DNA of 64,000 nt, from the sequence record MT150133.1, one strand, 5' to 3'. Position numbers and translations under genes: made by a program. The DNA is from Enterobacteria phage vB_EcoM_IME540. The notes under the pieces were generated by a model. The model was not told the origin of the DNA and searched no databases. It was given only the letters and a program-made list of their open reading frames with translations. Position 1 is the stretch's first letter. Every line of letters starts with the position of its first letter. Shown piece after piece: positions 18,104-34,000 of the stretch.

Positions 18104-18658
18104 TCAGTTCTTGTAGAACCGGAACGGGTTTATGTGGAAGGCTAACATAGCCTTAGGGATTTTACGAGACAAAAGACTCTTAAGTTTCCAACCACAGTAC
18201 ACGCGAAGGTAAAAGGTAATTCCACCTACTTTAAGATACGGAACCGAAGCAAAGACTCCCCATGCTTCATCATTCCACATCCATAACCAACCATGGTGAG
18301 CTTTATCAGGAGAACCAGATTCTACATCAGGATTACCGCGATAATGGAATTCTGAACTACAATCACGTCCTAGTTTATGATAAGCAAAGTTATAAGCTTT
18401 ATTTCGCCATAGCCAAGCTACTCTCTGGAGGTAAACACCACCAGGCATTTTCCTGATTTTAGCCCAACGTTTAATATGACCTTTGTCGCCATCAATTGGA
18501 TTATCGTATGTCATCATCCAATCAAAGCCATAAGGCAATTTACCGGTCTTTTTATTGTAGAAAGGAACTACAAAAGGCGCAAGGATAACGGCTAGAACCA
18601 TAGAGATAAAATCCAGCGGGACCAACAGAATCCAACTCAAATATTTTAAAAGTTTCAT
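18104..18658 (-). CDS. membrane-anchored protein (184 aa), apparently late-expressed
   Basis: N-terminal TM helix LSWILLVPLDFISMVLAVILAPFVVPF and a Trp/aromatic-rich body. Preceded by TATAAATA and flanked by identical terminators. Confidence 0.6.
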   Translation of the reverse strand: MKLLKYLSWILLVPLDFISMVLAVILAPFVVPFYNKKTGKLPYGFDWMMTYDNPIDGDKGHIKRWAKIRKMPGGVYLQRVAWLWRNKAYNFAYHKLGRDCSSEFHYRGNPDVESGSPDKAHHGWLWMWNDEAWGVFASVPYLKVGGITFYLRVYCGWKLKSLLSRKIPKAMLAFHINPFRFYKN

Positions 18659-18684: not shown

Positions 18685-18692
18685 TATTTATA
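18685..18692 (-). promoter_or_regulatory. late promoter TATAAATA
   Basis: Exact motif on the minus strand, intergenic, 27 nt upstream of ATG 18658. Confidence 0.55.
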
Positions 18693-18721
18693 CAAAAAAG
18701 GCCCAACCTTTCGGAAGGGCC
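18692..18721 (-). terminator. rho-independent terminator (copy 2 of a 30-nt direct repeat)
   Basis: Same 30-mer acaaaaaaggcccaacctttcggaagggcc (plus-strand text). Ends the tRNA-Arg/noncoding transcript. Confidence 0.75.
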
Positions 18722-18952
18722 TTTAACCTAGGGTAACCTTGTCGGGGTTCCACCTGCTAGGCAAGTGTTCGGTGCGCCGTTTCAGCTGTGATAGTAAAGA
18801 GCCAGAACACAGTAAAACTGTGGGAGGAACTATACTCCAGGGAACATCAGTCCGACGACTTACCGGTAGCGACCCGGTTTCTTGTTTGGTGCGCCGGTGA
18901 ATGCTGGTAATCAGTCTTCATACGACGGCTTGACTATATAATAGTCTTCATT
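18722..18952 (-). ncRNA. candidate stable small RNA(s) downstream of tRNA-Arg (positional analogue of T4 rnaC/rnaD)
   Basis: 231 nt with no credible ORF, relatively GC-rich, between the tRNA-Arg 3' end and a strong terminator. Carries the duplicated motif CGGCGCACC(A/G)AAC, a duplicated ATGAAGACT and several hairpins. Homology not verified. Confidence 0.4.
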
Positions 18953-19027
18953 TGGTATCCCGCCCTGGGATCGAACCAGGACCGCAAACTTAGAAGGATC
19001 GTATGCTATCCATTACACCAGCGGGAC
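18953..19027 (-). tRNA. tRNA-Arg (anticodon UCU), CCA encoded
   Basis: GTCCCGCTGGTGTAATGGATAGCATACGATCCTTCTAAGTTTGCGGTCCTGGTTCGATCCCAGGGCGGGATACCA. The cloverleaf folds by hand: 7-bp acceptor stem, T arm CCTGG-TTCGATC-CCAGG, anticodon loop CTTCTAA. Confidence 0.9.
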
Positions 19028-19032
19028 GTAAT

Positions 19033-19698
19033 TCAAAATTTTATTTTACGGCCTTTATTCCAACCTTCAGGAATAATATCCGTTTTGTTAATACGTTTAG
19101 AAACTTTTTCTTCTAAAGAATGAATCCACATTTTTCCATATCCGGAATTATTTTCACCTTGTTGGTGTTTATTTCTGGCGTGAGATTCTTTCATTTTATT
19201 TTTGGTTTCATCTGAATGGGTCTTACCCAAGAAAGATTTAGTATTTGAAAATTTCTCTCTATACTTAGGATTATCCCAAAGTTGTTTAAACCTTTCCGAA
19301 CCCATTTTACGATATTTTTCTTTAAGGTCTGGGTCGTTCTCAAATCTGGTTTTAAAAGCGGCAACTCCTTTTAAGGAAGCTTCTTTCTTTTTATCTAAAT
19401 ATTCTTCAGTGTTTAAATGGTCCCAACCACCTTCACCACCTAATTTCAAATTATAAACATCAGGGCGCTTTAAAAACTCTTCAGTCACAATATTCTTTTC
19501 TGACTCAAACATAGAGGTTTTATCGTCAAAGAACTCTAATATTTCTTTAGAGAAATTTTCTATACCGTATTTGACCTGGGCCCTTTTTAAGAGTTTACCA
19601 GAACCAAAATATGCATCATTCAAATTTTCGGTTGAATGGGCGCCTATATAGATTTTATTATTAATTTTGTTTGTTATTTTATAAGTGTAATGGAACAT
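19033..19698 (-). CDS. segB: GIY-YIG homing endonuclease, SegB-like
   Basis: 221 aa. MFHYTYKITNKINNKIYIGAHST...FGSGK (GIY-YIG) plus NUMOD-like basic repeats. Sits between tRNA genes, as T4 segB does. Confidence 0.75.
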   Translation of the reverse strand: MFHYTYKITNKINNKIYIGAHSTENLNDAYFGSGKLLKRAQVKYGIENFSKEILEFFDDKTSMFESEKNIVTEEFLKRPDVYNLKLGGEGGWDHLNTEEYLDKKKEASLKGVAAFKTRFENDPDLKEKYRKMGSERFKQLWDNPKYREKFSNTKSFLGKTHSDETKNKMKESHARNKHQQGENNSGYGKMWIHSLEEKVSKRINKTDIIPEGWNKGRKIKF

Positions 19699-19739: not shown

Positions 19740-19810
19740 TGGCCCTGGGTGGAATCGAACCACCATCCAGCGATTATGAGTCGCTCGCTTGACCGTCCAG
19801 CTACAGGGCC
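19740..19810 (-). tRNA. tRNA with anticodon CAU (elongator Met, or Ile if lysidine-modified)
   Basis: GGCCCTGTAGCTGGACGGTCAAGCGAGCGACTCATAATCGCTGGATGGTGGTTCGATTCCACCCAGGGCC(A). 7-bp acceptor stem, anticodon stem AGCGA/TCGCT with loop CTCATAA, T arm GGTGG-TTCGATT-CCACC. CCA not encoded. Confidence 0.85.
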
Positions 19811-19815
19811 TTAAA

Positions 19816-20082
19816 TCAAACTACAAATCCAGCAGGAGCATTATCATCTTTAGCCATGTGCTGAATTGTATGATAAGTCATTTCTTCAGGAGCAACCAGA
19901 TAAGCCGCAGCGTTAACTAGTGGAATTATTTTTGGTTTAGCGAATGTGCTATCGGCAATTGCCATAAAGGGCTCGCCATCAGTCTCAACTTCGCCAAATT
20001 GACATTCATATGAAATAGAACAACGTTTGGTAGTTGTTGTCTTGGTTTCTGGGTCGTAAAAAGCTAATTTTAATACTAACAT
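19816..20082 (-). CDS. hypothetical protein (88 aa)
   Basis: Track ORF starts at a GTG; trimmed to ATG 20082 (GAGG SD). Ends 5 nt before the tRNA. Confidence 0.55.
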   Translation of the reverse strand: MLVLKLAFYDPETKTTTTKRCSISYECQFGEVETDGEPFMAIADSTFAKPKIIPLVNAAAYLVAPEEMTYHTIQHMAKDDNAPAGFVV

Positions 20083-20194
20083 AAACACCTCAAATAAAAT
20101 TAAGTAAAGTAAGTTTGATTAATAGACCTTGTCTATTATGAAAGGTTCTTTGAGGGAAGAACCTTTGGTAATAGAGGGTATTAATGATAGAGTA

Positions 20195-20219
20195 ATAATA
20201 ACACATTACTCTTAAAGCA
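20195..20219 (-). promoter_or_regulatory. middle (MotA-dependent) promoter: MotA box TGCTTTA -12 nt- TATTAT
   Basis: Minus strand ATATGCTTTAAGAGTAATGTGTTATTAT in the intergenic gap upstream of ORF 19816-20082 and the tRNA cluster. Confidence 0.6.
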
Positions 20220-31026: not shown

Positions 31027-34000
31027 ATGTCTGTACAAGCGCCTTATGTTACTAGTCTGAGAATTGATAAACTCTCGGCTAACCATGTGAGCATTCTTTG
31101 GGATGACGTAGGCGCCAACTTCTATTATTTTGTAGAACTGGCCCAAACGAAGGATGCGGGTGTAGAAATTCCCGACGATAGATTATTTTGGAGAAATTTA
31201 GGTTACACCCCTAACAACGAATGGTTTGAAGAGGCATTCATTTCTCCTAATTCGTTTTATAAAATGCGAGTTGCGGTGGCAGCCCAGGGGTTTGAGCAGT
31301 CTGAATGGGTTTATACTGAAGAATTTGAAACTTTCTCTACCAACGCATATACATTTGAGCATATGCGTGAATTCACTTTGTCTAATAAGTTTATTGAAGA
31401 AAAATTCACAAACAATAACCAGAATTATGTGAACTTTAATACTGACGCCATTATGGCTTCTTTGATGAGTGAAGATTTTAACTTTACCCCTGCATATTCG
31501 CATTTGTCATCTATATCGAATTATGTTTTAAAAGCCGATCGTTTCCATGAAATCCAAGGAAGCATCCAAGCTGTTTGTAAAGACCCTAAACGTTCTATTT
31601 TAATGGAACTTGGTGGTGTACTTTACCTTTTAGAAAGATTCCAAAGCACCGCTAAGGTTTCTAATGATAAAGGGCAGAACTGGCATTATATCCGTTTGTT
31701 TAATGACCGGGTAGGTAATCCTGTTTCACGTACGGTACATTACCAAACCGACACGACCACTTATGTTCTAGGTTATGACCAAATATTTTACGGGCGTAAA
31801 TCAAGTGATATTCGTTGGTCTGCTGATGATGTTAGATTTAGTTCCCAAGATGTAACATTTGCTAAAATCGGTAGTGATATTGACCTTCCATTTGAAATCG
31901 AGATATTTGGTTCTTATGCGAAACTTCCTTTGCCTATTTCCACTATTGCTGAAGCTATGTGTGCTTCGGACGATTTCATTTATGTTGCAGGTAGAGACAG
32001 GGTTTATAAAGCAAAAACATCTGAGGCCCCTATCGACACGGACCCTAGTTCTCCGACTTACGGGGAGAAGATATTTGAAAGCGGTTATTCAACCATCACA
32101 GGGAACCCTAAAGCTGTTTGTTATAAATTAGATTCGATTCAAGGAAATACCTTTGCTTTAATTACAGGTGAAGTTAAAGAAGAGAAAATGGACCCTACAG
32201 TCGAATCCAATGTTATTGATTCTGAATCTAAAGGTGTTTATTGGTTAGACACTTCAACCGATACATGGACCCGTGTATTTGGAAACACCGAAGAAGAACG
32301 TCGTCGTATAGAACACGGATATACTAGCATGTCTACCGACGGAGAGGAATTATTTTTCAGTTCAAGCAACTTTAGATATGAAGTAGAGGTTGATTCTGAA
32401 CTTCCTTTGGAATATCCTGAAATTGTTACCTCAGCCGTTAAATATGTTAAAGACGAACAATGGATTCATGATAAGCATTATTTGATGATGAGTTTTAGGT
32501 CCAACTCTAAATCAGATTTTAAAGAATTTAAACCAGGGCGTATGGCTTATTATGCCGAACCATTCTTTAGTTGGTCCCGTCGTGATGGAACCCGTTCGTG
32601 GATTACTACTAGCGACCATGCGATGGTTGTTTATAATGATGCTTTATATCAGAAAATTATCGACCTGAACAGTGGTTCTTCACCTGAACGTATTGTTCAT
32701 GAGATTTGGAATAAAGGTTTTTGTAAAGTCACATCTCCTAATATAGAGTTTAATGGCTTTAAGAAATATTCTTCAGGAATGATGATTCATAAATCGACAG
32801 GTGAATTGGTTGGATATTTTGAATTCGACTATCGTGTACGTGATGAAGTTCGCGTCATTTGGAAGCCTAAAGAAATTATGTTTACGGCCGAATTACAAAA
32901 CCAGGAACATGAAATCCCATGGAAACCTAAAGAGGAAGTTGGTGAGCAGGACCCAGACCTCCAGCCTTTACTGGTTAAAATGATTCCAGATAGTTATTTG
33001 CTTCAAGATTCTAACTTTGAAAAATTCTGCGAATACTATCTCCAATTTATTAGTGATGGTTCCGGTACACACTATAATAATTTGTTGAATCTTATTCGTA
33101 ACCAATACCCACGTGAAGAAGATTCATGGGAATATTTGTGGTCAGAAATCTATAAGCGTAATATCTATTTGTCGAAGGAAAAACGTGATGAAGTTGTTCG
33201 TTTTTTCCAGGCACGCCAAAGCGATTTTTGGTCTACTAAAGGTACCGAAGCTTCTTATAAGTTCCTGTTTAAATTGCTTTATAACGAAGATGTTGAAATT
33301 GATATCGAGTCCAAGAACTCTATTGAATACGATATCATCGTAGAATCTGATAATATCAGTGAAGATATTGTCGGCCAAACCATTTATACTCCTACAGGAC
33401 GTAGTAATGTTACTTATATTGAACGTAACTATAAACAAGGTAAACTGCAATGGCGTTTAACCATTCATAACCTTTTGGGTCGTTTTATAGTCGGCCAGGA
33501 AATTAAATCTGAACGTACTTCGTTCAAGGGTATGATTGTGCGTGGTGTACGTGGTAAAGAACTTTTAAGTAACAATATAGACTATATCAACCGTAACCGC
33601 TCTTATTACGTGATGACTATTAAATCTAATCTCCCTACCTCTCGTTATCGCAACGATGTTTTGAGATTTGTCCATCCGGTAGGTTTCGGCTTTGTAGGTA
33701 TAACTTTGCTTTCTATGTTTGTTAACGTTGGTTTAACGCTAAAACATACAGAAACTATTATTAATGTCCTTAAGAACTACAAATGGGACTCTGGTTTGCC
33801 ATCTGAATGGTATGATAGAGTTGCTGTAATAGGTTTTGATGGTAATATAGAACGAGACCCTCGTACAGGTGCTCCGATGTACAACGTCGGCCCTAAAGCA
33901 GGTGAACCGTTTGATATTCCTGCCGATTATGATGCAGAAAACGATTTCTCTGTATTCCAAGGTCAATTACCACACGAACGTATTAAAAAGCATAGTCCAT

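Follow-up and report, generated by a model that had tools for sequence, protein, structure and literature searches.

In this study, we explored a 231-nucleotide (nt) segment at the end of a tRNA operon of Enterobacteria phage vB_EcoM_IME540 (MT150133.1; 64,000 nt were analysed, hereafter the window), which runs from 18722 to 18952 and is read on the minus strand. Our findings support a model, very likely to be correct in our judgement, where the segment forms the end of a T-even-type tRNA operon on that strand, past the last tRNA gene, and is built of three modules: an element that we term X, the stable RNA gene rnaD, and a conserved 3' trailer (table 1). The central module is in all likelihood, judging by homology at both of its ends, the orthologue of rnaD (species 2 stable RNA) of phage T4; it enlarges a known kind of element by one member and does not represent a new kind. 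The T4 rnaD has been known for 50 years, and with rnaC it is among the oldest known phage non-coding RNAs. Comparison among relatives yields a covariation-supported fold for rnaD, with a constant scaffold and a swappable hairpin whose cassettes form a mosaic across genera, and it places a published, unexplained adaptive single-nucleotide polymorphism (SNP) on one base pair of that distal hairpin. Fold, cassettes, and SNP mapping together convert an "unknown function" into a testable host-dependent phenotype. What we add to the family is modest: the structure of rnaD, the swapping of cassettes, the position of the SNP, X, and the conserved trailer.

The rnaD orthologue and the loss of rnaC

The GenBank annotation of T4T lists, directly after tRNA-Arg and in this order, rnaD (species 2, 119 nt), rnaC (species 1, 139 nt), a trailer, and the terminator. 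The window keeps this order on its minus strand: tRNA-Arg comes first, then rnaD, and last the operon terminator. By blastn, the 5' part of T4 rnaD matches 18833-18890 (58 nt, 94.8% identity), its 3' part matches 18771-18797 (27 nt, 92.6%), and the T4 sequence past rnaC matches 18690-18769 (84%). A covariance model (R1, 33 homologues) scored the rnaD of the window at 125.6 bits (E 7.2e-35), its only match in the 64 kb. A sequence-only reading of this DNA had guessed that the segment might be the counterpart of T4 rnaC and rnaD. The guess holds for rnaD, on the evidence of both conserved ends and of the covariance model, and fails for rnaC, for which no homology was found in or near the segment, including the exact T-arm string CCGGGTTCGAATCCCGGCG and the T-arm-like CCGGGTTCGAATCCCGG. 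The same reading saw non-coding stable-RNA territory at the end of a tRNA operon, equivalent to the T4 stable-RNA genes, which agrees with the T4T order and the rnaD homology; the extension of the stable RNA(s) to the whole segment does not, because the first third is X, absent from T4, and the last ~50 nt are the conserved trailer.

The family itself is large, with rnaD homologues in 753 phage records. For comparison, we drew on annotated phage records, IMG/VR, and metagenomes, which gave 40 loci with 33 distinct sequences; the mature ends of T4 rnaD were taken from the GenBank annotation only. A scan of IMG/VR with the 3' end of tRNA-Arg returned three loci, and a metagenome scan with a 19-mer of hairpin H1 returned 29, of which 18 were without the rnaD 3' block; 17 of these, which lie in GC-rich contigs, look like chance matches, and the remaining one (L045) is a genuine copy truncated by the end of its contig. 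Across Tequatrovirus, Mosigvirus, Dhakavirus, and Gaprivervirus, the 5' ~50 nt of rnaD (AGAA-ACCGGGUCGCUACCGGUAAGUCGUCGGACUGAUGUUCCCUG) are near-invariant, as are the 3' ~25 nt (UCACAGC[A/U]GAAACGGCGCA). Identity between the window and T4 reaches 93-95% in these scaffold blocks, against 70-81% for flanking coding DNA. The copy in the window has the same consensus fold as T4 rnaD and differs from the phage T2 allele by one nucleotide. It departs from T4 rnaD in its distal arm, an unrelated cassette of the T2 type that brings overall identity down to ~79%, in its 3' end (...CACCG vs ...CACCA in T4), and in its surroundings, being preceded by X instead of directly by tRNA-Arg and not followed by rnaC. 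The 3' end varies in the family at large, reading CCG, CCT, CCC, CAG, AAG, or CCA according to the phage. In Rfam 15, searched at the gathering threshold and at E up to 10, no family besides tRNA matches the segment; the related loci of Cronus, TH44, T2, and KIT01 gave tRNAs only, plus weak tmRNA-like matches in Cronus.

The absence of rnaC is a precise deletion. In phages that bear the gene, the sequence runs ...GCGCACCG-AAUUAUCGAUUCG...(rnaC)...GUAC-AAACACUUGCC; in the window and in several Dhakaviruses it runs ...GCGCACCG-AACACUUGCC, that is, with rnaC cleanly removed. The resulting junction, CACCG/AACACTTGCC (window 18770/18769, minus strand), is common to IME341, vB_EcoM_005, AnYang, CLBP2, and several metagenomic contigs. 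In T4, T2, KIT01, and many others, rnaC is part of this operon tail; the window lacks the gene and retains the trailer found behind it in T4. X, rnaD, and rnaC occur together in KIT01 and QL01, and the Gapriverviruses TH44, L019, and L057 hold ~520 nt at the rnaC position, in TH44 with an open reading frame (ORF) of 127 aa. The only rnaC match in the window, 23 nt at 32134-32156 on the plus strand (91% identity with the T4 gene at its 5' end, E 0.001), falls within coding-like sequence and is probably due to chance.

Fold of rnaD and exchange of its distal arm

Comparison shows rnaD, as modelled by an RNAalifold consensus of the 33 distinct sequences, to be a rod. Hairpin H1 at the 5' end is followed by a closing helix, P2, by the invariant internal loop GACUGA/GAAA, and by helices P3a and P3b, and this scaffold carries the distal hairpin. 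On this predicted fold, 97.9% of cells are paired, as opposed to 27-49% when the partners are slid. Doubly changed cells number 42, against 12.2 +/- 4.4 in column shuffles, none of 500 of which reaches 42, and five pairs carry changes on both sides. The closing pair of H1 is AU in 23 sequences, GC in 7, and GU in 3, with all cells paired; pair 44-116 goes from UA to AU in 10 sequences and pair 46-114 from UG to CG in one; in P3b, pair 54-107 changes from GC to AU in 13 sequences, and pairs 55-106 and 56-105 show double-sided changes in six each. P2 is paired in 99.1% of cells, with five of its seven pairs never varying and no compensatory change. The real weight behind the sequence-only observation lies in the relatives, in the spread of homologues and in the compensatory base changes.

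Some features of rnaD recall a tRNA. H1 has the dimensions of a T-arm (5-bp stem, 7-nt loop); its loop GUCGCUA is, however, not a T-loop sequence on reading, it sits 5' of the closing helix and not at the place of a T-arm, neither ARAGORN nor Rfam finds a cloverleaf in the segment, and the 3' CCA is not conserved. An acceptor stem made of the rnaD 5' end and the 3' CGGCGCACC was considered and rejected: the strands are not complementary, and the 3' end pairs with the internal GUCGUCG. A k-turn or loop-E was likewise rejected for the invariant internal loop, whose sequence by eye departs from the canonical forms of these motifs.

Between the two strands of P3b lies the swappable part. The arms form classes that defy alignment with each other, the class C arm of the window being unrelated to those of T4 (class A) and AnYang (class B), and each class folds as a hairpin of its own. 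Class A/A' includes T4, RB32, KIT01, and Mosigviruses; class B includes AnYang, CLBP2, and SP18; class C includes T2, BW-1, IME341, TH44, and the window. Within A/A', four further distal pairs show double-sided change, and most of the apical loop (consensus AAUCUUUACGAU) is conserved. The apical hairpin of the window, CACAGT-TTT-ACTGTG in DNA letters, had already been noted, as ACAGT-TTT-ACTGT, in the sequence-only reading. At least three unrelated cassettes replace one another as the distal hairpin of different phages. The classes ignore genus boundaries (A', B, and C in Dhakavirus; A and C in Tequatrovirus; B and C in Gaprivervirus), and we conclude that the cassettes have been exchanged by recombination on a constant scaffold. 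A BLAST search of the class C arm against 5,426 E. coli genomes, made as a test of capture from the host, gave no match.

As a separate observation, the arms of class B (e.g. locus L008) and class C, otherwise unrelated, share the octamer AGUUCCUC, found in the window at 18823-18831 of the minus strand. There it extends as UUCCUCCC, with an anti-Shine-Dalgarno-like CCUCC motif.

The mosaic of cassettes invites an explanation at the level of DNA, where the segment would be a target of recombination or of homing endonuclease, e.g. of SegB, and the variation of the cassettes an escape from cleavage. A segB-like GIY-YIG gene does lie about 150 bp upstream of the segment, and marker exclusion of the tRNA region is the work of SegB (PMC2330249). 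Nevertheless, the SegB core GGTTCRANTCC (PMC2330249) is absent from rnaD and X, where the exact T-arm string was searched for and not found; compensatory changes and G.U intermediates indicate selection on RNA pairing; and recombination accounts for the movement of the cassettes but not for each of them being a hairpin. We therefore regard a role of the DNA itself as improbable.

The same comparisons bear on the possibility that the segment encodes one or more small proteins. No ORF of at least 60 aa overlaps 18722-18952, in line with the earlier statement that it is free of credible ORFs; a mechanical scan gives frames of 21-53 aa, on both strands, which is all that speaks for coding. In the relatives read, no arrangement of Shine-Dalgarno sequence plus ATG is conserved, and the 24-aa ATG ORF at 18847-18921 is frameshifted in vB_EcoM_005 by a 1-nt insertion. 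The central cassettes are unrelated and differ in length by other than multiples of three, and substitutions keep the helices, not the codons. The rnaD of relatives measures 105, 106, 108, 110, or 112 nt, its middle being replaced by unrelated sequence, and we therefore conclude that the segment is not coding; a small protein is hardly credible.

An adaptive substitution and the function of rnaD

A hint of function comes from phage BW-1. In lines adapted to ECOR34, one convergent SNP arose in rnaD (164264 T>C), in three of three lines, and the virulence measure on that host (RBG) went up from 0.17 to 0.98; its authors found no structural consequence of the change (PMC12685909). By our mapping, the SNP falls in the apical hairpin of class C and is an A>G substitution on the RNA strand at the fourth position of ACUGUG. 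Before it, the hairpin reads CACAGU-UUU-ACUAUG, with a C.A mismatch; after it, CACAGU-UUU-ACUGUG, with the C-G pair restored. The hairpin so produced is the perfect hairpin of the window, of phage T2, and of every other class C sequence collected, and TH44 holds the pair next to the SNP site through G.U. Indirect as it is, coming from another phage, the SNP argues that pairing of the distal hairpin matters, in a host-dependent manner.

It is possible, and we propose it tentatively, that rnaD acts in trans on a factor specific to the host strain, the scaffold being its constant platform and the distal hairpin its variable part. In T4, transcription gives a single precursor of ~1.75 kb with its end after the species I RNA gene (PMC2330249), and RNAC and RNAD have been classed as late RNAs, with a Northern riboprobe used for RNAC (PMC9697503). 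On the strength of homology with T4, rnaD of the window would be excised from a polycistronic precursor by the host's tRNA-processing nucleases and would accumulate late as a stable RNA of ~115-120 nt. The constant scaffold would then bind a conserved partner, and the distal hairpin would tune or direct the interaction with the strain-specific factor, for example by acting as a decoy for a nuclease or a defence protein of the host. Such an RNA would be dispensable in laboratory hosts and important in particular wild hosts.

The main rival takes rnaD for a by-product of processing, a spacer or trailer RNA whose structures would aid processing, termination, or the protection of tRNA-Arg from 3' exonucleases, with no function in trans. 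Several observations weigh against a function in trans, and some of them are what a by-product would lead one to expect. The tRNA region is non-essential in T4 and T2, that is, in laboratory hosts (PMC2330249), rnaC is lost in many relatives, and X resembles decaying sequence; because the region is dispensable and rnaC is often lost, selection on it can be weak. The thermodynamic z-score of rnaD is not significant: its minimum free energy is no better than that of shuffles (z 0.03), beside -1.34 for the 231-nt segment, -3.27 for X, and -2.45 for trailer plus terminator. The case for function rests on comparison with relatives, since thermodynamic stability alone is unimpressive. Even there, P2 and the internal loop are invariant, so that covariation neither supports nor contradicts them, and the window itself has U.U at pair 44-116. 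Both ends of the RNA in the window are assumed from the T4 annotation, and its 3' end, with no rnaC downstream, must form otherwise than in T4. The argument on function derives from a single evolution experiment with a different phage and from our mapping of its SNP. No partner or target of rnaD emerged: the window holds no complementary site, and the distal arm matched nothing in E. coli. In reviews up to 2025, the function of rnaC and rnaD is given as unknown, and we found no newer functional work on RNAC or RNAD in the literature.

Three lines of evidence nonetheless count against a mere by-product: strong conservation, compensatory changes, and the BW-1 SNP. Four genera, with flanking genes at 70-81%, have virtually the same rnaD over roughly its first 50 and its last 25 nt, and the helices are maintained through compensatory changes. 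In addition, rnaD stays in place in T2, Mosigvirus, and Gaprivervirus despite an ORF between it and the tRNAs, and the lone SNP, selected convergently on a wild host, restores a hairpin. We hence consider a by-product rather unlikely.

Extending a trans-acting rnaD further, one may imagine a modular anti-host RNA, its scaffold docking onto a conserved partner and its traded hairpin serving as a host-specific decoy or specificity cassette. The only functional hint for it is the BW-1 SNP on ECOR34, and we give this version little credence. An alternative drawing of the class C apical hairpin has a stem of 4 bp and the 7-nt loop G-U-UUU-A-C, like the anticodon loop of tRNA-Lys(UUU); if this weak resemblance is meaningful, the hairpin could act as a decoy against PrrC-, RloC-, or PARIS-type anticodon nucleases. 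The likeness is weakened by IME341, whose loop is UUGUA.

Element X, the trailer, and the operon

Element X directly follows tRNA-Arg and has no T4 counterpart. It occurs in 26 phage records only, at 97-100% identity, phage 04086 alone matching the window exactly. Its 5' part is the perfect 6-bp hairpin GACUAU-UAU-AUAGUC, which the sequence-only reading had noted right after the tRNA; its second part is a closed stem-loop whose outer stem reuses the P2 sequences of rnaD (AAG-CCGUCG ... CGGCGC). In fact, blocks of X are colinear with rnaD (AAG-(C/U)CGUCG, GACUGA, UUAC(C/U)A, UCAC, and CGGCGCACC), and the gapped local score between the two, 30.85, stands against 14.4 +/- 2.7 in dinucleotide shuffles, with 0 of 1000 reaching it. 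A covariance-model search of the whole window for a second copy of rnaD returned none and left X undetected; since the rnaD model misses it, we do not call X a member of the rnaD family. Its sequence suggests that X is probably a lineage-restricted remnant of a duplicated rnaD from which H1 and most of the long arm have been lost.

The repeats described earlier are present as claimed, ATGAAGACT at 18951-18943 and 18921-18913, and CGGCGCACC at 18896-18888 and 18779-18771, all on the minus strand. The longer form of the latter, CGGCGCACC(A/G)AAC, is best read as the common 3' end of rnaD and of its degenerate copy. The 14-mer repeat gives a blastn self-hit at E 0.046 and is less likely to be chance than the 9-mer repeat, which alone is not significant (~0.1 expected by chance, a rough estimate) and is broken in phage 005.

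Alternatively, X could be an independent functional small RNA, a tRNA-like acceptor minihelix with an ACCA end, freed by the tRNA-processing enzymes. It is presumed to be transcribed with tRNAs, it folds well (-16.4 kcal/mol, z -3.27), in the window it ends in a 6-bp stem with one bulge and then single-stranded ACCA, and its linker CCA/AACAAGAAA matches the linker after the second tRNA-Arg type of RB32, CLBP2, and others. Against this, the terminal ACCA is confined to the window and phage 04086, the CCA reading ACA (GCACCA becoming GCAACA) in all five distinct relatives read, and within 18722-18952 ARAGORN finds neither tRNA nor tmRNA and Rfam, searched up to E 10, no tRNA, so the earlier likening of GCACCA to a tRNA 3' end is not supported. 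Its 26 near-identical records give no covariation support, and the colinearity with rnaD across a large internal gap points to a degenerate duplicate. All told, an independent minihelix seems unlikely. A small ORF across X is frameshifted in phage 005. KIT01 has X without the segB-like ORF, and X and segB are hence not strictly linked.

The second tRNA-Arg(TCT), of different sequence (...GGTTCGATCCCTACTGTCTCGACCA), lies directly upstream of rnaD in many T-even phages (loci L009, L011, L020, L023, L024, L027, L029, L030, and L034). That it shares the linker CCA/AACAAGAAA with X suggests modular reshuffling at CCA-linker boundaries.

The third module, the trailer, is conserved above the expectation for a spacer. 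One pair of its hairpin T1 runs G-C, G.U, and A-U across the aligned trailers; the single strand GAACCCCGACAAGG is identical in 19 of 19 aligned T-even trailers and carries an indel and a substitution in Erwinia phage Cronus; the small hairpin T2, lost from some genera, covaries between GCC/GGC and ACC/GGU. The terminator that follows (AAGGCCCTTCCGAAAGGTTGGGCC, then T6) folds strongly, as had been said of it, with an 8-bp outer stem and an inner stem before U6, and its pair 58-77 covaries CG/GC. A simple terminator scan did not call it, probably because of mismatches inside the stem. In E. coli, 3'ETS-leuZ is reportedly a functional RNA made from the 3' trailer of a tRNA operon, said to have been described by Lalaouna and colleagues in 2015. 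The stretch 18694-18770 is likewise the 3' external spacer of a tRNA operon, and it has a 5' hairpin, a 14-nt single strand, and a terminator hairpin with a U tail. By analogy of architecture only, trailer plus terminator may be a phage regulatory RNA of the 3'ETS type. Unlike 3'ETS-leuZ, it has no target or sponge partner to show for a search of the 64-kb window, where no site complementary to the invariant strand rose above chance.

Erwinia phage Cronus has a homologue of the trailer (locus L018, about 697-770) and, by covariance-model search, no rnaD. The homologue opens ~300 nt (697-1005) between two tRNA-Met genes, with a long-range inverted repeat of 16 bp (TTAATTGATAACAGTG...CACTGTTATCAATTAA) and a T-arm-like end, GGGTTCGAGTCCC. 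A further stretch downstream, 1088-1350, gives a tRNA-like match to the tmRNA model (28 bits, below threshold) and has another T-arm-like end. Both stretches may be unannotated stable RNAs.

The phage as a whole is of the T-even type (Tevenvirinae), and the best matches of the region are Dhakavirus-type phages, among them IME341, KIT01, and QL01 (~93%). Upstream, tRNA-Arg is identical to its T4 counterpart across 83 nt (blastn), and the segB-like ORF plus the tRNA-Arg region has 81% DNA identity to the T4 segB region. The segment would be transcribed together with tRNA-Met, the segB-like ORF, and tRNA-Arg, the transcript stopping at the terminator. It is richer in GC than its surroundings, as claimed before (0.545 at 18700-18899 and 0.495 at 18800-18999 vs 0.30-0.41 on either side).

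Table 1. Features of the segment and its surroundings in the window, with the parts of rnaD and of the trailer.
Feature	Position	Strand	Remarks
tRNA-Met	19740-19810	minus	
segB-like homing-endonuclease ORF, 221 aa, GIY-YIG/NUMOD3	19033-19698	minus	between tRNA-Met and tRNA-Arg
tRNA-Arg, anticodon TCT, T4 type	18953-19027	minus	ARAGORN; Rfam RF00005, 48.8 bits
Element X	18887-18952	minus	66 nt
X, 5' hairpin	18932-18946	minus	
rnaD orthologue	18771-18886	minus	limits by analogy with T4T annotation
rnaD, H1 (ACCGG-GUCGCUA-CCGGU)	18862-18878	minus	RNAalifold; 5-bp stem, 7-nt loop
rnaD, P2 5' strand (GUCGUCG)	18853-18859	minus	pairs with 18772-18779 (CGGCG-C-AC, C bulged)
rnaD, internal-loop strand (GACUGA)	18847-18852	minus	
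rnaD, P3a 5' strand	18843-18846	minus	
rnaD, CCC bulge	18840-18842	minus	
rnaD, P3b 5' strand	18833-18839	minus	
rnaD, distal arm, class C cassette	18797-18832	minus	apical hairpin CACAGU-UUU-ACUGUG, 18808-18822
rnaD, P3a 3' strand	18784-18787	minus	RNAalifold
rnaD, invariant loop (GAAA)	18780-18783	minus	RNAalifold
rnaD, P2 3' strand	18772-18779	minus	RNAalifold
Conserved 3' trailer of tRNA operon	18724-18770	minus	
Trailer, hairpin T1 (CACUUGC-CUA-GCAGGUG)	18751-18767	minus	
Trailer, single strand GAACCCCGACAAGG	18737-18750	minus	14 nt
Trailer, small optional hairpin T2	18724-18736	minus	
Intrinsic terminator of tRNA/rnaD transcript	18694-18723	minus	fold
T4 late-promoter motif TATAAATA	18685-18692	minus	right after terminator U-run, upstream of DUF7338 ORF
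DUF7338 ORF	18104-18658	minus	

The late-promoter motif TATAAATA behind the terminator is the sole such consensus on either strand between 16500 and 21500. Some minor observations concern the same region. At ~20185-20215 of the minus strand, upstream of a 90-aa ORF (19816-20088) and of the tRNA genes, ATGCTTTAAGAGTAATGTGTTATTAT resembles by eye a T4 middle promoter, with a MotA box TGCTTTA, 12 nt, and TATTAT; a 10-bp perfect inverted repeat, AAAGGTTCTT...AAGAACCTTT, also noted by eye, follows this putative promoter. On the plus strand at 18862-18878, the reverse complement of H1 followed by TTTCTTGTTTG is the only terminator-like site of the region there; it might halt antisense transcription, or be a coincidence.

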